Shown: positions 1,419 to 16,736 of the stretch, piece by piece | Layout: the number at the start of each line of letters is the position of its first letter | How positions within the stretch are numbered: position 1 is the first letter of the stretch | IMG/VR virus record: IMGVR_UViG_2531839527_000011 | Strand: one strand, 5' to 3' | Origin: a virus | Lineage: Duplodnaviria; Heunggongvirae; Uroviricota; Caudoviricetes | Length of the DNA: 19,093 nt | Translations under genes and position numbers: made by a program | The notes under the pieces: generated by a model | Database searches by the model: none | Told to the model about the DNA's origin: nothing | What the model saw: only the letters and a program-made list of their open reading frames with translations

Positions 1419-2917
1419 TTAAAAATCAGCCTGATTCGGGATCAGTTTTTGCCAGATAGCTGAAACGTATTTTGCCTGGTGACGAGCGTCATCAAGTGCA
1501 TTATGGCGCTCACCTTCGAATGGAATAGCCGTTCTGGCATCGAAGTCTATGGCTTTCCCCAGCTCAACGATTGTGCGTACATCGCGATCGTTGTGTAACG
1601 CCACGGGCAGGGGATCCCCTGCCGTTCGTATGAACGGCGCAAAATCGTGTTGTCGAAGTTGGCTCCATTTCCCCAGACCTGAACAAAAAATTCACCGGAG
1701 TTTTCGTCGATAAATTCCCGCAATTGTAACAGTGCATCATCTAACGGGATTTCATCGGTCATAATGGCAGATTGCGCTTCGCGTGATTGCTTAAGCCACC
1801 ATTTAATGGTGTCCCGATCAATGACTCCGCCAGCAGTTTCCAGATCGATAGTCTTACTAAATTCCGGTCCCATATCTCCGGTTTGCGGATCGAAAAATAT
1901 TGCACCTATTGAGATAATCGGGGCATCGGGATTTTTTCCCATGGTTTCAAGGTCGATCATCAGATGAATCCCCGCTCTGCTGGTGGATGTGAGATTATGA
2001 TGACCGTTCGCCTTAATTAAGGGATCTGACGCCTCGCCAGTTTCACTATCGCTGGCATGATGCTGATTGCCGCCAGTGTTCTCCTTGTGCTGATGCGCAG
2101 TGCCTTCCATTTCCTCCGGATCATTTTCCTGAACTTCAGGCTGATTCTCTCCATCGAATATTTCCTGGTATGTTGCGTCCCCCATCACCGCACCACAATC
2201 AGGGCAGTTGCCGCCACCGCTCTGACCGCAGGCGGTGCAGATCTTTTCCGGTTCCTGTTGCACTACTGGTTCAGGTTGTTTCGTTTCTGGCTCGTTTTGT
2301 TGCGTATTTGGGCTGTTTTGTTCCGCTTTCTGGTCGTTCTGTTCCGTTTCTTGCTGGTTCTGGTTCACAGAATCGCGGGTTTCAATCCCCTTCACCCATT
2401 TCGGATCATTCGGGTCGCTAATCCCTTCAATAAATTCACCACGTGATGCAGCAAGCAACTTATCGGCGTCAGGCTGGCTGATATTGGCTGCCTGCATAAT
2501 TTTGTTTACTTCGTCAGCGGTAACTTTTACCGGTTCTGGCTGTGCGGTCGTGTCAGATGCACCAGTATTTTGTTGTGAACCTGAGCATGTACTGTTTTTG
2601 CGGGCGAAATATTCTTCTTTCGTGATTTCAGTAGCCCCGGCAGCCAGCGCCTTATCCAGACCAGAAAGTTTGTTTGCGCGACCGTATTTTTCGCCATCCT
2701 TGTCGGTGAAGAGGAAGTAGAACGGCCCCTCACGCTCTACAGATGGTTCGACTTCCACTTTGCATTCGGTTTTTTCGTTGTCCGGAATTGCCGTTTCCAC
2801 TGCATCAGTTTCTGGTACTGGCGACGAGAGAGTATCAGTTGCGCTCTGATTTGTTCCTTCATCTTCAAACACGCCCTTTGTAGTCAGGTATTCAGTAATG
2901 TATTTGTTCAGTGCCAC
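1419..2917 (-). pseudogene. DnaQ-like DEDDh 3'-5' exonuclease domain protein with a long low-complexity N-terminal region; exonuclease domain split across two frames
   Basis: ORF 1547..2917 carries Exo I-like (HLMIDLETMG) and Exo II-like (VWGNGANFDNTIL) motifs and ends WGKP*. Overlapping ORF 1419..1604 in another frame carries the Exo III-like motif HNALDDARHQAKYV. Adding one G to the G4 run (minus strand, plus coordinates 1557-1560) restores a continuous reading ...SLSWGKAIDFDARTAIPFEGERHNALDDARHQ.... Apparent GTG start at 2917. Confidence 0.6.
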
Positions 2918-3101
2918 AGGTCTTTGTGAATGTCGATCGGACGTTCACGACAAGGCCAAAAATAGTCTGGCGGTCGTAGCGAAGGGCATCAGGCTGTTTG
3001 CGCATTGATGCCGAGATACGCTTCCAGTCTTCGCGGTCGTTGTCGATAACTTCATTTTTTGCCCAGCGATGGATGCTGCCGTCAATGTTTCCGGCATCCA
3101 C
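2892..3101 (-). CDS. Small hypothetical ORF (69 aa), possibly a frameshift fragment of a neighbouring gene
   Basis: ORF in the six-frame track. It overlaps the end of ORF 3103..3885 by one base and the start of the exonuclease ORF by 26 nt. GTG start; no recognisable motif. Confidence 0.25.
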   Translation of the reverse strand: MDAGNIDGSIHRWAKNEVIDNDREDWKRISASMRKQPDALRYDRQTIFGLVVNVRSTFTKTCGTEQIHY

Positions 3102-3102
3102 A

Positions 3103-3885
3103 TCACCAGGCCAGAGAGCGTAGGCCAGTTCTCATCCAGTGTTTTCCATGTCTGCTTGTATTCGCGATGAATGGCAGCAATGACCGGGTTGATTTTTCCT
3201 GTTGAATTTTCAGTGTCTGTTGATTGGCTCTGGCGCGGGCGAGATCAACAACAGACGTGTATTTTCCGGTTTCCTTGCGTTCACCTTCGCGACGTTTTTT
3301 CCAGATGCGCATCTCTGCCTGAATTTCGGGCCATTTGGCACCAGGCTTACATTTATGCTTAACCCACCCGATGGCATGCAGCTTAAGCTCCGGATACATG
3401 GCGTTAACTTCTGGCATTTTCATCAACGCTTCAACGATATGTCCGTCGAATGTTGCCATGTCTTCCTGCAACAATTCCTGCGCGCTAATCACCATATCAA
3501 CGGTGATGTTTTCACATGTGTCGAACTTAACCATGACAGCGTTCTGTACTTCAGGGGCCAGCTTGTCAAAAGTGACGTTCATCGGATCTGATTCAGTCTC
3601 AACCGGGACAAAGGAAGCAGACTCCTCATCCCAGCGGTTTTCCTGCATATATTCAGCATCCCAGGAATCGAGGGCAGGGCGGGGTATACCGGGTTTATCC
3701 TCGCAAACAAGAAATTTATAAGCGCAGTCCTGAGCAGCCGGATAATGTTCCAGGAATTGCCAGTGAAATTTTGCGCGGGCGCGACGTTCATCACCAGCTT
3801 CAATGGCAGTGGCTACAGCGACGGCACCTTCTTCCTTTATTGCCTGTTCGTCCGGAATGGCGGCGCAAATAAAGACTTTACTCAT
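3103..3885 (-). CDS. Hypothetical early-left region protein (260 aa)
   Basis: Long minus-strand ORF co-oriented with the int-proximal early operon. No motif I can assign. C-terminal approximately 50 residues look low-complexity and may be out of frame. Confidence 0.5.
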   Translation of the reverse strand: MSKVFICAAIPDEQAIKEEGAVAVATAIEAGDERRARAKFHWQFLEHYPAAQDCAYKFLVCEDKPGIPRPALDSWDAEYMQENRWDEESASFVPVETESDPMNVTFDKLAPEVQNAVMVKFDTCENITVDMVISAQELLQEDMATFDGHIVEALMKMPEVNAMYPELKLHAIGWVKHKCKPGAKWPEIQAEMRIWKKRREGERKETGKYTSVVDLARARANQQTLKIQQEKSTRSLLPFIANTSRHGKHWMRTGLRSLAW

Positions 3886-3965
3886 TTTGTTTTAACCTCA
3901 TTACAGATTTAAGGATGAACAAATCCCTGCCATTGCTGGCATATAAAAATGAAACCGGATATTAA

Positions 3966-4169
3966 TTACGGTGCTGTTTTAAGTCCTGCCGGGATTTCGT
4001 TATTATCCTGGTGAATAACTTTATCGACCGGATAACAGTTACCGGGAATTTTCTGCTCCACTGCGGCAACCATGCATTCTTTCATTGAGCCGTATACGCC
4101 AGTAACCATGTCAACCGGTTCACCGGAAACAAGAAAAACCGTCAGAACAAGTGCAAATGTAGTATTCAT
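3966..4169 (-). CDS. Small protein with N-terminal hydrophobic/signal-like segment (YdfD-like), 67 aa
   Basis: MNTTFALVLTVFLVSGEPV... hydrophobic N-terminus. Start overlaps the dicB-like stop in an ATGA arrangement. Position immediately downstream of dicB matches the Qin prophage gene order as I recall it. Confidence 0.5.
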   Translation of the reverse strand: MNTTFALVLTVFLVSGEPVDMVTGVYGSMKECMVAAVEQKIPGNCYPVDKVIHQDNNEIPAGLKTAP

Positions 4170-4354
4170 TGCCAGCATCCTTTTTGCATCAGGCGTAAAC
4201 GGGCCAGCATTGAAACAATGCATATTTTATCCAATAGCTCCCGTTCTTGTTTCCTCTTGTTAATGGCATCTTCAGTAAATACTGGGTTACTGATAGTGAC
4301 ACCAATTTCAAAACAACCTTCAGACGTATTAACGTTTGGTAATAACGTTTTCAT
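4166..4354 (-). CDS. dicB: Cell-division inhibitor DicB-like protein (62 aa)
   Basis: Internal ATG at 4354 with GAGGG RBS 8 nt upstream gives a 62-aa product MKTLLPNVNTSEGCFEIGVTISNPVFTEDAINKRKQERELLDKICIVSMLARLRLMQKGCWQ. This matches my recollection of E. coli DicB in both length and sequence. A dicF-like sequence lies directly upstream. Confidence 0.7.
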   Translation of the reverse strand: MKTLLPNVNTSEGCFEIGVTISNPVFTEDAINKRKQERELLDKICIVSMLARLRLMQKGCWQ

Positions 4355-4523
4355 TATCGCACCCTCAACAATGAATTTTGTGATGCGGTGCCTGGTGCCT
4401 CCAGGTGACGTTAACCAGTTAACAATTAACGCCGGATACAGAGAACCCATCCATAACACTGTTTTTGGTTTTAACTGTTCCGCGTGCGCTCAGCCGCATT
4501 CACCGCATCACAAAATTCACTTT

Positions 4524-4582
4524 AAAAAGGGCAGCAGAGCAGTCACGGAGTAAAACTGATACCACCAAACGTCACCAGAAAA
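4524..4582 (-). ncRNA. dicF: DicF-like small RNA
   Basis: Minus-strand sequence TTTTCTGGTGACGTTTGGTGGTATCAGTTTTACTCCGTGACTGCTCTGCTGCCCTTTTT is near-identical to the DicF sRNA as I remember it, ends in a T-run, and sits just upstream of dicB as in Qin. The plus-strand ORF 4583..4819 begins immediately beyond the 5' end of this call and is treated as non-coding. Confidence 0.65.
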
Positions 4583-4916
4583 TTGATAACAGAGGGCGTT
4601 GCAGCGGGGTTGTCACTTAAGCGTATGGTCAACCTGGCAACCCGGTGTCTCAATGGGGGAGGAATAACCCCGCCATACTTACCGCCGCGCCATTTCGCGG
4701 AGTGCCACAACCGGAAGCGCACGGTCGAATTAAATTTAACGACACCGTACAGTGAGACGAACTTCGCCGTGCGCTTTCGCGTTATGCCCTGGCTTTTCAG
4801 GGATATATCCTTTCAGTAAACTGTCAGTACCGGATTCTTATCCGTGTCCGGCGCACGACCACACGTGGCAGCGTGTTGGTCTCCATTTTTAACCCAGAAC
4901 CTCAATGGAGGATAAA

Positions 4917-5126
4917 ATGCCAAACAAAAAAAGAAATCCGCTTATTGAAAAACAGATTGAATGCCTGGTAAATCAACTCAGGCAATCAGGGTTATTAAAA
5001 ACTCATTCAGAGTTGAGGCTCACAGAATCAGCATTCGACGATAAATTAAATAATGTCCTTTATAATGGCATTATTGATTTTAATCGTTCAGTTGGTCGCC
5101 TCGGCCCTGCTGGTGTTTCCTTATAA
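4917..5126 (+). CDS. Hypothetical small protein (69 aa), AT-rich, convergent on the dicB operon
   Basis: ATG at 4917 preceded by a strong RBS (GGAGG, 5-nt spacer). Its stop codon (5124-5126) directly abuts the stop of the convergent 212-aa gene (5127-5129). Confidence 0.4.
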   Translation: MPNKKRNPLIEKQIECLVNQLRQSGLLKTHSELRLTESAFDDKLNNVLYNGIIDFNRSVGRLGPAGVSL

Positions 5127-5765
5127 TTACCAGTCAATCCAGAGCGGACCGTGTTCAGCGTAAATATAACTGTACACATCCAGATTATATTTGTGGTCTG
5201 TTAAGAACAGGCCGCAAATACATGCCGAAGCTTCCAGGGCAGCGGCTCTGTTACTGAATAACCATGTGGCAACATTCCAGCGTTTTTCTGCATCCCAGTC
5301 TTTCTCAAGGCCTGATACCATGAAGAAACCGTTAGTGTTGCCATCAAATAATTCTGTTTCCAGATTTTTAAGCAATGCCTGATGGACTCTTGCCAGGTAT
5401 TCCGCCGGAATTTCGCCACGAATTCTGATGAGATTGTCATAAACAAACATGTTCCCCGCATATGGCGATTTTTCTTTCTTGTTTTTTAAACCAGCATCAT
5501 GAGCAAACTGATCAATTTCTTCTTCCGTTGGTTTCGTATTGATGTTTTGCGCTGTCGTTTCTGCAATTTTATTTGCCACACTATCTGAGTCGTGTTTATT
5601 TACAGACGCACAGAAATACAATCCGGTAAACGCATCGCGCACATTACGAGCCATATTATCAGTGTCTTTTTTCGTTACCGATTCCAATGCAAGTTCGTTC
5701 AGACGATGACGAAGTGTGTGTGCTGCAATCTCCTGGATTGAAGTAGGTAAATCTTTAAATTCCAT
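5127..5765 (-). CDS. Hypothetical protein of the dicB operon (212 aa from MEFKDL; ydfB/ydfC-position protein)
   Basis: Long minus-strand ORF directly downstream of the ydfA-like gene. GAGG RBS 6 nt upstream of the ATG at 5765. An alternative ATG at 5777 overlaps the upstream stop (ATGA). No catalytic motif recognised. Confidence 0.6.
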   Translation of the reverse strand: MEFKDLPTSIQEIAAHTLRHRLNELALESVTKKDTDNMARNVRDAFTGLYFCASVNKHDSDSVANKIAETTAQNINTKPTEEEIDQFAHDAGLKNKKEKSPYAGNMFVYDNLIRIRGEIPAEYLARVHQALLKNLETELFDGNTNGFFMVSGLEKDWDAEKRWNVATWLFSNRAAALEASACICGLFLTDHKYNLDVYSYIYAEHGPLWIDW

Positions 5766-5776
5766 CGTCAACCTCA

Positions 5777-5929
5777 TCAGTCAGAGTTTCTTGCTAACCA
5801 GCGATGCGCGCCAGCTTCGGTTTTAAACGTTTTGCTTTTGGTATACGTCATCGCGGTGAACGTGCCGTCCTGGTTGGGAAACACGCCGCACACCAGAGAT
5901 TCGTTGTTGCCAAGATCGATAGTATCCAT
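5777..5929 (-). CDS. YdfA-like small protein (DUF1391-like), 50 aa
   Basis: MDTIDLGNNESLVCGVFPNQDGTFTAMTYTKSKTFKTEAGAHRWLARNSD resembles my recollection of E. coli YdfA. GAGG RBS 7 nt upstream of the ATG at 5929. First gene of the leftward operon. Confidence 0.55.
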   Translation of the reverse strand: MDTIDLGNNESLVCGVFPNQDGTFTAMTYTKSKTFKTEAGAHRWLARNSD

Positions 5930-6221
5930 GTTGACCTCATTTCCCCTTAACGCCGGGGTAGCGGAACAAAAACCTGCTGCATAGTTATTAAAGTTGAACC
6001 CTGCCGTCATGTTCTTACGCCTCGGGCTGGCTACTTACCCCCTGACCACTGCCGGGTAACTCGAAGTATTGCCCTGCATTCTGTGGGGTGGAGTGAGGGA
6101 ATGAATGAGGTTTAGAAAAATGAACTTTACAGGTCAATGTTTTTTTATCAAAACATTTTAAGCAGGCAGCTGTTAAGCCATCACCACGATGGCATACAGT
6201 TAATCAAATAGATGAGGTTGG

Positions 6222-6860
6222 TTAAATATCTTGTTGAATTTTAAAGCATACGCCCAATATGCAAGATAGATCATCCAGCATAATTGAAGGGTAGCGAGGA
6301 TTCGTGGGGACTAAAAGAATATCCGGCCCTTCTATCTCCAGTTTACGAATGACAGGTGTTGTGGTCCCTTTGGGTAAGGCAAGGACAATATTTCCTGGTT
6401 GTACGGTTCGATCGGGATCAACAAAAACTGTTGAACCATTTGGGATGGAAACTCCCCCACCAGATGTTGACATACTGTCACTCTCTAGAACAACTGCAAA
6501 GGTATTGGCCGGGATTTCTCCGACAAGCTGCACACAAGAGGTTATTGAGGAATTTTTCATATAATCACTCCAGCTTGCTGCCTGCTGAAGTGATAGTAGC
6601 GGAACCGTTTTTATCGGCGGTAAAGATAGATCAAGCGAATCACCTGTATTTAACTCTCCTCCATTAAGAAGCCAATTTTCGTTTACTTTCAATATCTTTG
6701 CCAGTGAACTTATGTAACGCGAGGACGGCGCTCCTCCACCGTTCATCCATTGACTTACGGAGCCTTTTGATGCGCCAGTGGCATTGACAAGGTCTTTGCC
6801 TTTCAGGTTTAGCGCATGCATACGTTGGGTTATGCGTTCAGATATTGTTTGCTTGCTCAT
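6222..6860 (-). CDS. CI-like prophage repressor (N-terminal HTH, C-terminal S24/LexA-like autopeptidase domain), 212 aa
   Basis: N-terminal HTH-like region (LKGKDLVNATGASKGSVSQWMNG). C-terminal domain has a Ser in a DSMS context and a Lys in VIRKLE at the spacing expected for an S24 Ser-Lys dyad. Divergent from the Cro-like gene. No SD sequence upstream of the ATG, suggesting a leaderless mRNA. Confidence 0.85.
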   Translation of the reverse strand: MSKQTISERITQRMHALNLKGKDLVNATGASKGSVSQWMNGGGAPSSRYISSLAKILKVNENWLLNGGELNTGDSLDLSLPPIKTVPLLSLQQAASWSDYMKNSSITSCVQLVGEIPANTFAVVLESDSMSTSGGGVSIPNGSTVFVDPDRTVQPGNIVLALPKGTTTPVIRKLEIEGPDILLVPTNPRYPSIMLDDLSCILGVCFKIQQDI

Positions 6861-6951
6861 GTTTTGATTTTAAAACACAGATGGTTTTGTTTCTTGACTT
6901 TCTTTGGTTTTGATTATTAAACTTTTGGCGTTCAGTTTTATGGAGCGACTC
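6861..6951. promoter_or_regulatory. Immunity-region operator/promoter region between the CI-like and Cro-like genes
   Basis: Three GTTTTG(A/T)TT repeats at 6861, 6884 and 6907, 23 bp apart. TTGACT -35-like hexamer at 6893-6898 oriented toward cro. 8-bp palindrome TTTTAAAA at 6867-6874. Confidence 0.5.
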
Positions 6952-7182
6952 ATGAAAAAATCAGAAGTATTAGGCTATTTTGGCGGAGTTGTTAAAACAG
7001 CCGCAGTTCTAGGAACGTCAAAAACCACAGTCAGCATGTGGGGGGAAGAGGTTCCGTGGAAATGGGCGTTGCTAATTCAGGCAGTCACTGCCGGGGCGCT
7101 CAAATATGAGTTACACATACCGACGGTTGTCATTCCCGGTTCTGATCATAATCCGCCTTCTAACCAAGGGGGGGATTCATGA
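6952..7182 (+). CDS. Cro/YdaS-like small HTH regulator (76 aa)
   Basis: ATG at 6952 with GGAG RBS. Small size and position divergent from the repressor. HTH-like segment VVKTAAVLGTSKTTVSMW. Stop overlaps the next start (ATGA). Confidence 0.7.
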   Translation: MKKSEVLGYFGGVVKTAAVLGTSKTTVSMWGEEVPWKWALLIQAVTAGALKYELHIPTVVIPGSDHNPPSNQGGDS

Positions 7183-15141: not shown

Positions 15142-15827
15142 ATAACCAGTATTTACAGTTTGTTCGTGAGCAACTCATGATTGCCACCGCCGATTTGAGT
15201 GGATCAACAAAAGGGCAGCTTGAAGCCTGGCAGGAGAATGCCATGTTCGATACAGGGCGTTACAGGCGAAAAAAAATCCGGTACCGCGATGAAGTGACTG
15301 GAAAAATGATAACGCGGGATAATCCACCAATCCCGGGAAAGCAATCGCTGGCGAAAGGTTCATCAATTGCCCTGGTCAGTCCGGTTGAGTTTTCGACATC
15401 ATCATGGCGACGCGCCGTTCTGTCTCTTGAAGAGCATCAGAAGGCGTGGGTGCTGTGGGTATACAGTGAAAATCCGAGTTGGGATTATCAGGTGGTCATT
15501 GCGAAATGGGCGTGGGATAAGTTTCAGGTGCATTTTGGCACCAGAAAAATTACAGGGAAAACGCTTGAGCGTCTGAAGAAATTAATCTGGCTGGCGGCGC
15601 AGGATGTCAGGGGGAGGATTACTGGGCGTGACGTCTACCAGCGACAGGAACTTGCCAGACTGTGTGGAGTTAAGCCTGACAACTGGAGCCATAATTATGC
15701 GAACTACTGGCGTGAGATGTGCGACATTTTTAAGAAACTCGATACAGAATCCTTGATTTGCACCGTGAAAATGAGATCGCAACAAAAAGCGACCTTTTCA
15801 CGACGAGATATTGCAAAAGTCAATTAA
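15138..15827 (+). CDS. Putative late-gene antiterminator Q (229 aa)
   Basis: Sits immediately after rusA and immediately before a promoter-plus-terminator unit, which is the canonical Q/PR'/tR' arrangement. The protein is not confidently matched by motif; the call is positional. Confidence 0.5.
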   Translation: MNNQYLQFVREQLMIATADLSGSTKGQLEAWQENAMFDTGRYRRKKIRYRDEVTGKMITRDNPPIPGKQSLAKGSSIALVSPVEFSTSSWRRAVLSLEEHQKAWVLWVYSENPSWDYQVVIAKWAWDKFQVHFGTRKITGKTLERLKKLIWLAAQDVRGRITGRDVYQRQELARLCGVKPDNWSHNYANYWREMCDIFKKLDTESLICTVKMRSQQKATFSRRDIAKVN

Positions 15828-15873: not shown

Positions 15874-15898
15874 AAACCCGCTTAAATGCGGGTTTTTT
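15874..15898 (+). terminator. tR'-like intrinsic terminator about 35-50 nt downstream of the putative late promoter
   Basis: AAACCCGC-TTAAAT-GCGGGTTT followed by a T-run. Confidence 0.65.
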
Positions 15899-15971
15899 GC
15901 TTAACTCTGTGGACCTTTTTATCTGTAGTTGTAAGATATGGATATTCTTACAATTTAGGTCGGTGAGCTTA

Positions 15972-16736
15972 ATGGAAGAACAGCACGGTAATTACTTTAT
16001 AAAACGAATTCAGTTGATTGGAAGGGGTGCATTTGGCTTTGTTGAACACGTTAAGGTTTACAACCTCAACAAGGGTGAATGTGGGGATTATGCTAGAAAG
16101 GTTTTAGCCCCCGAAAAACCAGAGCTTTTGGCGCAAATAGAGCAGTTTAGAAGGCGTTTTAAAAGGGAGGTCGTGTATCAATCACATTGCGTACATAGCA
16201 ATATTGTTCCTATTTATTTGTGCGATTTGTTTGCCGAGAATCCATGGTTCATTATGGATAAAGCAGAATGTGATCTTGAGCACGAAATAACGAACAACCT
16301 TCTTACAACAGATCAAAAAATTTCAATAGTGAAAATGGTATTAGATGGTGTAGCTCACATCCATGCGAAAGGCTATTTACACAGAGATATAAAACCATTT
16401 AATGTCTTGCGATTTAGCGACGGAACATACAAGGTGTCTGATTTTGGTCTGGTAAAAGATACAAATCCCGAAGGGGATACCACTAAATTGACCGAGATCG
16501 GTACCCGTATGGGAAGTACAAGATATATGGCTCCCGAGATTTTATATAATGCCGAGTATTCAGTTAAGACTGATGTTTATGCGGTGGGGCGGTTAATTGA
16601 GGACTTAAATTTAGATGATAAAAAAATAAAGCCTATCATAGCGAAGTGTACCAGGATGGATAAAGATGATAGATATCAGACAATAGATGATGTGGCGTTT
16701 GATTTTGTGCATTCTTTTTTAAGGAGTGAGTCATGA
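15972..16736 (+). CDS. Hanks-type (eukaryotic-like) Ser/Thr protein kinase, catalytic domain only (254 aa)
   Basis: Gly-rich loop IGRGAFGFV, Lys in YARK, catalytic loop HRDIKPFN, DFG, and YMAPE activation-segment motif. AT-rich. Confidence 0.85.
   Translation: MEEQHGNYFIKRIQLIGRGAFGFVEHVKVYNLNKGECGDYARKVLAPEKPELLAQIEQFRRRFKREVVYQSHCVHSNIVPIYLCDLFAENPWFIMDKAECDLEHEITNNLLTTDQKISIVKMVLDGVAHIHAKGYLHRDIKPFNVLRFSDGTYKVSDFGLVKDTNPEGDTTKLTEIGTRMGSTRYMAPEILYNAEYSVKTDVYAVGRLIEDLNLDDKKIKPIIAKCTRMDKDDRYQTIDDVAFDFVHSFLRSES

Follow-up and report, generated by a model that had tools for sequence, protein, structure and literature searches.

Positions 3966-6010 of a 19,093-nucleotide Caudoviricetes sequence (IMG/VR record IMGVR_UViG_2531839527_000011; this whole stretch is hereafter called the window) very probably encode the early-left dicBF-type operon of a lambdoid prophage, in which an unrelated accessory cassette of two genes replaces the ydfB and ydfC genes found in the Qin prophage of Escherichia coli K-12. 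As a division-inhibition operon, comprising the DicF RNA and the DicB protein, it is of the ordinary prophage type and adds one more example to a kind that is well known; all that has yet to be described is the pairing and polymorphism of its middle cassette. A first-pass annotation, made from the sequence alone, had proposed a Qin-like operon under the control of the adjoining repressor, with an enlarged middle gene that might be the intact ancestor of ydfB and ydfC. The practical outcome of the present analysis is a correction, in that the dicBF operon is genuine and the idea of an enlarged ancestral gene is to be dropped.

A Qin-type division-inhibition operon

The five features named in the first-pass annotation, namely a ydfA-like gene, a 212-aa open reading frame (ORF), the DicF small RNA (sRNA), dicB and a ydfD-like gene, are all present within 3966-6010, on the minus strand, at the positions and in the order originally assigned to them, and their scores lie so far past random expectation that chance is ruled out. 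The comparison with K-12 Qin that had been suggested as a check was run, and the alignment was anything but poor: DicB is identical at 59 of 62 residues, and DicF at 51 of the 53 nucleotides of its K-12 counterpart, with 96% identity over the surrounding 260 nt. The assignment of DicF (4529-4580, minus strand, with an intrinsic terminator stem and T-run) rests further on a full-model match to Rfam RF00039, at 66.9 bits against a gathering score of 48 (E 4.8e-13), and that of dicB (62 aa; 4166-4354, minus strand) on the Pfam DicB family (PF05358, E 2.3e-38). On the dicB side the ydfD-like gene (67 aa; 3966-4169, minus strand) matches Pfam DUF1482 (E 7.5e-23) and aligns throughout with K-12 YdfD, which is labelled 'lysis protein' in the K-12 record; its 4-nt overlap with the dicB stop is the same in K-12. 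At the other end, the ydfA-like gene (50 aa; 5777-5929, minus strand, with a possible alternative ATG upstream at 6010) matches Pfam DUF1391 (E 1.9e-29) and is identical to K-12 YdfA at 45 of 50 residues.

With ydfA promoter-proximal and ydfD at the dicB end, the arrangement of the cryptic prophage Qin (ydfA-ydfB-ydfC-dicF-dicB-ydfD; Balasubramanian et al. 2016, PMC5069750; Ragunathan et al. 2023, PMC10448788) is reproduced, and the shared genes agree with those of K-12 in order, strand and overlaps. The difference lies in the middle. By blastn against K-12 Qin, only two segments of the window align, 5967-5784 (the ydfA stretch, at 93% DNA identity) and 4857-3900 (from the dicF leader to ydfD), so that identity is 90-96% on both sides of an intervening stretch of 926 bp (4858-5783) which has no blastn alignment with the 448-bp ydfB-ydfC segment of K-12. 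Where K-12 has ydfB and ydfC, the window thus carries an unrelated cassette, with genes on both strands. The nearest genome, that of enterotoxigenic E. coli (ETEC) strain E1433, is 99.8% identical over 3900-6200, and the closest relatives are prophages of ETEC strains that adjoin potC and potD.

Two genes unrelated to ydfB and ydfC

The single middle gene of the first-pass annotation does exist, as a 212-aa ORF on the minus strand (5127-5765; 216 aa if started from the ATG at 5777), but it is one of two genes in the region. On the plus strand, a 69-aa ORF that had been overlooked (4917-5126) is convergent on the 212-aa gene, and the stop codons of the two abut directly. RefSeq annotates both products in the nearest genome (WP_000394554.1, 212 aa; WP_001133036.1, 69 aa), the plus-strand hypothetical protein that it lists within the cassette of ETEC E1433 being the 69-aa ORF.

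The proposal that the 212-aa ORF is the intact ancestral gene, of which K-12 ydfB (42 aa) and ydfC (72 aa) are the broken remains, draws on its position between ydfA and dicF, exactly where K-12 has the two short genes. Nothing else favours it, and we regard it as highly improbable. In addition to the absence of DNA homology, tblastn gave no match in either direction at E<=10, neither for the 212-aa protein in the corresponding region of the K-12 locus nor, in any relevant place, for YdfB and YdfC against the whole window, in which neither gene is present. Comparison by hhalign of the 212-aa family profile with YdfB and YdfC returned probabilities of 0.1% and 0.3%, respectively, and a profile search of 1.84 billion representative proteins retrieved no YdfB- or YdfC-like protein among the matches whose sequences were examined; a 42-aa match from this search (P0155) was considered and is not YdfB. 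Most tellingly, one viral contig (L015) carries, in order, a DicA-type repressor, ydfA, ydfB, ydfC, the 212-aa gene, the reverse 69-aa gene, dicB and ydfD. As ydfB, ydfC and the 212-aa gene stand intact and side by side in this contig, the last cannot be an unbroken form of the other two, and ydfB or ydfC is found alongside the cassette in several further loci. On these sequence comparisons, the 212-aa gene is part of an unrelated accessory cassette and not an ancestral ydfB-ydfC fusion.

Judged from their patterns of substitution and conservation, both cassette ORFs are real genes. The ratio of non-synonymous to synonymous substitution rates (dN/dS), calculated pairwise against diverged copies, is low for the 212-aa gene (0.32-0.37 overall, and ~0.2 in the part encoding its C-terminal domain) and for the 69-aa gene (0.25-0.27), third-position changes are in excess, and both proteins have full-length matches in PHROG: the 212-aa protein to phrog_2151 (E 4.8e-145, residues 1-212 on profile positions 1-212 of 212), a protein named 'Ybl81' in some records, and the 69-aa protein to phrog_4274 (E 9.1e-51). 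That either is a chance reading frame, for which only the lack of functional annotation speaks, can be dismissed against these data together with a strong Shine-Dalgarno sequence (GGAGGA) 4 nt before the ATG of the 69-aa ORF and 153 homologues of the 212-aa protein of similar length, of which all those named are from Escherichia or Salmonella.

Linkage of the cassette genes

In the 212-aa protein, a linker joins a helical N-terminal module of ~55 aa to a C-terminal alpha/beta domain spanning residues ~97-212 (hereafter the C-domain). A gene encoding the C-domain lies convergent beside the 69-aa gene in all 74 IMG/VR loci in which the latter was detected, with identical spacing in 71; across the same loci the N-terminal 56 aa range from 48 to 100% identity, and ydfB, ydfC, dicF and dicB come and go. 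The association also extends beyond E. coli. For the 212-aa protein, the profile search of representatives returned one full-length cluster with partial or frameshifted copies, many proteins that share the N-terminal module only, and two distant relatives of the C-domain, both from Salmonella prophages and differing at the N-terminus; in some of the Salmonella relatives an XRE helix-turn-helix (HTH) domain is inserted. The C-domain of the Salmonella protein P0154 is 23-27% identical to that of the 212-aa protein, and the contig that encodes it (locus L003) has a 69-aa ORF convergent on the 3' end of its gene, which it overlaps by 53 nt. This ORF and that of the window are identical at 36 of 70 codons counting the stop (51%), with 28, 19 and 50 differences at the first, second and third codon positions, and the surrounding genes are int, a repressor and a Cox-like gene, then the pair itself, followed by exonucleases. 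Taken at the level of sequence, the gene pair is kept together across large divergence and in a different phage context.

Such persistence might nonetheless be passive. It is possible, though in our estimation rather unlikely, that the two are functionally unrelated neighbours, the 69-aa gene being an independent reverse moron expressed in the lysogen and the 212-aa gene an ordinary early gene, and that their togetherness is explained by the absence of a recombination point between the abutting stops. The slot between ydfA and dicF does host other reverse ORFs, such as the 106-aa ORF described below, and the mosaic junctions of these loci fall at the N-terminal module and at the hairpins that border the dicF leader, with none between the 212-aa and 69-aa genes. 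Mere neighbourhood is harder to reconcile with an adjacency that outlasts divergence of the C-domain to 23-27% and of the small protein to 51% identity, and that recurs in another phage background with another N-terminus, or with the overlap of the two genes by 53 nt in Salmonella.

A variable slot between ydfA and dicF

The N-terminal module of the 212-aa protein (residues 1 to ~56, MEFKDLP...NVRDAFTGLY) leads a separate existence. It also matches phrog_1363, 9419, 6937 and 33007, it occurs in dozens of representative proteins of 40-200 aa with unrelated C-termini, and many E. coli genomes match just the 5' part of the 212-aa gene. Several variants with this module are again accompanied by a small convergent gene: a 121-aa protein (phrog_33007) by one of 66 aa (phrog_34441) in nine loci, a 135-aa protein by one of 77 aa (phrog_10348) in seven, and a 201-aa protein (phrog_1363) by one of 63 aa (phrog_2605) in a single locus. 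The 135-aa variant may be a shortened protein of the 201-aa type. E. coli prophages show at least three pairings of a C-domain with a small gene (a fourth could be one of these in truncated form), and Salmonella has a homologous pair in a different phage background.

The contents of the slot were surveyed in the 52 IMG/VR DicB loci in which both ydfA and dicF could be located. Together ydfB and ydfC occupy it in 18 loci, ydfB with something else in 20, and proteins with the N-terminal module only in 10; the arrangement of the window occurs in three, and one locus has none of these. These differing contents identify the slot as a variable site, and the occurrence of ydfB with ydfC in it is accordingly a feature of K-12 rather than of the family. 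For specialists, the useful description of the operon middle is that of a variable slot holding conserved gene pairs which lack an assigned function. Separately, a 106-aa reverse ORF was noted in the slot of one viral contig (L022, 3176-3496, minus strand), antisense to a long ydfB-extended ORF. It has long hydrophobic stretches and probably encodes a membrane protein, has no match in PHROG or Pfam, and is present in ~20 of 80 DicB loci.

A more ambitious view, which we consider doubtful, is that the slot is a polymorphic hotspot, in which a shared N-terminal module is carried on interchangeable C-domains, each locked to its own convergent small gene. If this were true, and the pairs were effector/cognate-partner systems acting in exclusion, anti-defence or as toxin and antidote, they would represent an undescribed family of phage conflict genes, sited inside an operon that is already known to protect its host from phages through DicB. 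In architecture only, there is an analogy with polymorphic toxin/immunity cassettes, which likewise have a conserved N-terminal module, interchangeable C-domains and a small adjacent gene for each. The small genes of those cassettes, however, are co-directional and downstream, whereas here they are convergent, and no toxin, immunity or secretion domain was detected in the present cassette.

Possible function of the cassette

Searches for function returned little. The 212-aa protein has no match in Pfam or NCBIfam, nor in PDB by sequence-profile search; the 69-aa protein has none in Pfam, NCBIfam, PADLOC or PDB, and no relative in a scan of one genome per species. PADLOC reported 0 defence families at E<=1 for either protein, and the literature, searched for Ybl81, phrog_2151, the RefSeq accession and DUF1391, yielded nothing on function and no paper on the 212-aa family. 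The best AF2 model of the 212-aa protein, with a predicted local distance difference test (pLDDT) score of 69 and C-domain blocks mostly at 75-84, has four N-terminal helices followed by a beta-beta-alpha-beta-beta-alpha-beta domain. When the C-domain was compared with PDB and BFVD by Foldseek, the repeated top match was the Prp/YsxB (DUF464) cysteine protease fold (TM1457, Staphylococcus aureus Prp and a phage 'cysteine protease'), at E 3e-3 to 5e-3 and template-modelling (TM) scores of 0.23-0.46. A Prp-like protease was rejected as a candidate, as the fold match is insignificant, C182 and H205 are lost in the Salmonella clade, and no Cys or His is conserved. The residues that are invariant over both C-domain clades are mostly hydrophobic, Gly, Pro or aromatic, and include an FDGxxNG motif. 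The loss of C182 and H205 in the Salmonella clade makes a Prp-type enzyme unlikely, and a binding or oligomerisation domain likelier.

With low confidence, we suggest that the two cassette genes form an accessory pair of the moron type without enzymatic activity, the small protein being perhaps a cognate partner or regulator of the C-domain, and, with similarly low confidence, that the pair may act in phage-host or phage-phage conflict rather than in the control of cell division. A narrower version, that the 212-aa and 69-aa proteins form a toxin/antidote or abortive-infection pair and are one allele of a polymorphic effector/partner locus, appears improbable to us. Linkage in 74 of 74 loci and across the divergence between E. 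coli and Salmonella would suit such a pair, as would the different convergent small ORF that goes with each of the other variants of the N-terminal module; and exclusion and host-takeover genes are known to reside in the early-left region of lambdoid phages. Yet there is no PADLOC match at E<=1 and no known toxin or immunity domain, typical active-site residues are not kept across the two C-domain clades, protein toxin-antitoxin pairs are rarely convergent, and the 69-aa protein is hydrophilic, which type I toxins are not.

Control of the operon and proposed mechanism

Upstream of the operon, and transcribed in the same direction, lies the gene for a CI-type repressor, also of 212 aa (6222-6860, minus strand), with matches to Pfam HTH_3 (E 1.7e-4) and Peptidase_S24 (E 2e-13). 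The protein aligns with full-length lambda CI (3bdn, E 3.8e-10) and keeps the catalytic Ser (ESDSM) and Lys (VIRKL). Its likeness to DicA is limited to the HTH domain (24 of 65 residues identical, 37%), and the product of the divergent gene beyond it is P22-Cro-like, without similarity to DicC; the immunity pair next to the operon is thus not DicA/DicC. A promoter scan found a candidate leftward early promoter at 6124-6155 (minus strand; TTGATA-16-TAAAGT at 6151-6124), which is overlapped by an operator-like palindrome, TGTTTTTTTATCAAAACA (6138-6155), of the form TGTTTT-N6-AAAACA. The same palindrome recurs at 6860-6877, in the intergenic region between the repressor and cro genes, and these are its only two matches in the window, against 0.14 expected; a count of two was reached by 3 of 200 shuffled sequences. 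The palindrome is plausibly an operator for the repressor at the leftward promoter. The earlier placing of the operon under the repressor is accordingly plausible, given the promoter, the palindrome and the CI-like HTH and S24 domains, with the amendment that the repressor is not of DicA type.

This difference from K-12 may be of consequence for induction. In K-12, repression by DicA, a protein of 135 aa, is relieved by the antirepressor Rem, and SOS-inducing compounds reportedly do not induce the operon (PMC10448788, PMC5069750). With a lambda-CI-like S24 repressor in place of DicA, RecA-type self-cleavage is at least possible, and this copy of dicF and dicB may respond to DNA damage, unlike that of K-12. 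As a separate observation, the repressor gene and the Cro-like gene (6904-7182) are intact in the window, whereas the annotation of the ETEC E1433 prophage, which is otherwise 99.6% identical, gives a LexA-family protein of 112 aa for the repressor and describes cro as frameshifted.

We envisage the following sequence of events. In the lysogen, the lambda-CI-like repressor would probably bind an operator overlapping the -35 hexamer and thereby keep shut a sigma-70 promoter near 6151-6124. Upon derepression, one leftward transcript, its start predicted near 6117, would run over ydfA, the 212-aa gene, the antisense of the 69-aa gene, the dicF leader, dicF, dicB and ydfD. RNase III and RNase E would then cut DicF from its leader as in K-12, and DicF would pair with the ribosome-binding site of ftsZ, while read-through of the DicF terminator would yield DicB, which blocks assembly of the Z-ring together with MinC, and YdfD, a lysis protein. 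These later steps, from DicF processing to the production of DicB and YdfD, are proposed by analogy with established K-12 biology, on the strength of near-identical sequence. The 212-aa protein would be expected to be made with the early-left transcript, the convergent 69-aa gene would need a promoter of its own, with a candidate start near 4829, and the two are inherited as a unit.

The lambda pL operon with kil (PMC3961180) offers a parallel, being likewise early-left, under a CI-type repressor, and provided with a division inhibitor among small accessory genes. The two operons are not related in sequence, however, and the targets differ, Kil acting via ZipA and FtsZ, DicB via MinC, and DicF on ftsZ mRNA; nor was an N-like gene seen between the promoter and ydfA in the window.

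Several points weigh against the picture of a working dicBF operon with a two-gene accessory cassette. Linkage of two genes that abut could come from physical proximity alone. For the 69-aa gene there is no convincing promoter, as the only match of the scan (4889-4918) overlaps the start codon, and the best alternative (4794-4822) fits at 8 of 12 positions only. The leftward promoter, its operator and the single transcript are all features that we infer. The repressor has Ala-Ala at the position of the lambda Ala111-Gly112 cleavage site, which makes its SOS inducibility uncertain. Pfam, NCBIfam, PADLOC and PDB give no functional pointer for the cassette, and its fold matches are insignificant or generic. 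Lastly, a large exonuclease gene close by carries several single-base frameshifts, such that the prophage may be decaying and the operon could be silent.

DicF, its leader and the junction hairpins

In the DicF allele of the window, two positions that are C in K-12 are U; both lie in the terminator stem, where they give adjacent U-G and G-U pairs. The calculated stem energy is -11.1 kcal/mol, as against -15.9 kcal/mol in K-12, and the changes leave the duplex predicted with the ftsZ leader as it was (-39.5 vs -38.5 kcal/mol). According to these folding models, the weaker stem might raise read-through into dicB. Ten of the retrieved loci have the same allele, and some of these loci overlap one another on shared contigs.

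Homology to K-12 resumes at 4857, and the dicF leader (4581-4857, minus strand) corresponds to the untranslated region between ydfC and dicF. The RNase III cut that makes a 190-nt precursor in K-12 lies ~137 nt upstream of DicF (PMC10448788), a position that corresponds to ~4717 in the window. Around the K-12 RNase III and RNase E sites the leader is 96% conserved, and its segment 4708-4741 is conserved also in the Salmonella locus L003.

Two adjacent hairpins (4827-4881, minus strand) mark the junction between the variable slot, here filled by the cassette, and the dicF leader, and have counterparts in K-12 (locus L001, ~5083-5140) and in Salmonella (L003, ~6830-6890). Hairpin 1 (4827-4856, GCCGGA...TCCGGC) is conserved in sequence, at 24 of 27 positions between E. 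coli and Salmonella, beside a 69-aa gene that retains merely 54% DNA identity over the same distance. Hairpin 2 (4857-4881) is kept in position and not in sequence, as four unrelated stems precede the same hairpin 1: a window type, an inverted type, a K-12 type and a Salmonella type, one of these versions being an inversion of another. In single-sequence folds, a pair of hairpins forms in every version (z-scores of -1.4 to -2.6). RNAalifold did not recover hairpin 2, MAFFT being unable to register the unrelated stems, and Rfam at a relaxed threshold has no family for the hairpins, and nothing whatever in the Salmonella locus. The two-hairpin element may serve in RNA processing or antitermination, or may mark a boundary of recombination. 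Next to it, an anti-Shine-Dalgarno sequence, TCTCCAT (4882-4888), was considered as a means of sequestering the ribosome-binding site of the 69-aa gene and was rejected, since RNAfold predicts a structure without that pairing, and the centroid leaves the site open.

Three further observations concern sRNAs at these loci. In the untranslated interval between DicF and dicB, Rfam places a match to STnc100, a gammaproteobacterial sRNA, at 4377-4517 (minus strand), below threshold at 39.2 bits (gathering score 47, E 5e-7). In L003, a Salmonella enterica prophage locus, a terminator hairpin, TTTTGGCGGTAAAGGAAGACCGCATTTTTT (7129-7158), lies downstream of the homologous pair and of a partly conserved leader, and its 5' arm has TTTGGCGGTA in common with the DicF terminator stem; Rfam detects no DicF there, and the hairpin may belong to a DicF-like sRNA with a different body. 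In a clade formed by L015 (identical to L142; 3540-3905) and loci L143-L158, the 69-aa gene is 81-84% identical to that of the window and dicB is often present. No DicF was found in L015 at the Rfam gathering score, or in the others by blastn-short, and these may be dicB operons that have lost dicF.

Distribution and relation to known dicBF loci

Of 5,426 complete E. coli genomes, 4,764 match some part of the 2.3-kb region, 568 match all of it, and 566, or about a tenth, have the cassette at a coverage of at least 80%. Genomes of O157:H7, O121, O145, O103, O111 and ETEC carry the cassette at 98.8-100% identity, and between the window and the other dicBF prophages of O157:H7, other Shiga toxin-producing E. 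coli and ETEC there is essentially no difference, both cassette genes being described there simply as 'hypothetical protein'. Because near-identical copies exist in hundreds of sequenced E. coli genomes, O157:H7 included, the operon of the window adds little to what is known of dicBF. Sequenced lambdoid phages (mEp460, Tritos and others) have dicB, dicF and ydfD with middles of the ydfB/ydfC type. That the neighbours of dicF are not conserved among the several prophage contexts in which it is known has been reported before, with four copies in enterohaemorrhagic E. coli (PMC5069750, PMC7873438), and one published comparison includes a Qin-like strain without ydfB (PMC5069750).

Other features of the prophage

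Beyond the operon (1422-3885, minus strand), the gene for a large 3'-5' exonuclease is spread over three reading frames by five single-base deletions; its intact form, in ETEC E1433, is a protein of 823 aa with an Rv2179c-like domain. Four of the five deletions remove an A, a pattern suggestive either of prophage decay or of sequencing errors in homopolymers. Two different Q-type late antiterminator genes, at 9876-10412 and 15132-15827 (PF06530 and PF06323), occur within the 19-kb stretch and suggest a composite or recombinant prophage. Just past the second of these, a gene for a eukaryotic-type Ser/Thr kinase (15897-16736) matches the PADLOC models PD-T4-6, mad6 and Stk2 (E 1e-28 to 3e-40), and by its sequence likely encodes a prophage-borne defence kinase.

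A hok/sok type I toxin-antitoxin locus lies at 12107-12281 (Rfam sok, 108.7 bits), with hokD at the matching place in the nearest genome. Adjoining it, a segment at 12520-13346 that includes a Fic/DOC family gene (12836-13330) is absent from the ETEC E1433 prophage, which is collinear elsewhere, and appears to be an insertion. Past the first Q gene there is a reverse pair of genes (10418-10897 and 10913-11827, minus strand), the products of which are a 159-aa protein with a weak RexB-like PADLOC match (E 1.5e-3) and a DUF6731 protein of 304 aa; this pair may constitute an exclusion or defence module.

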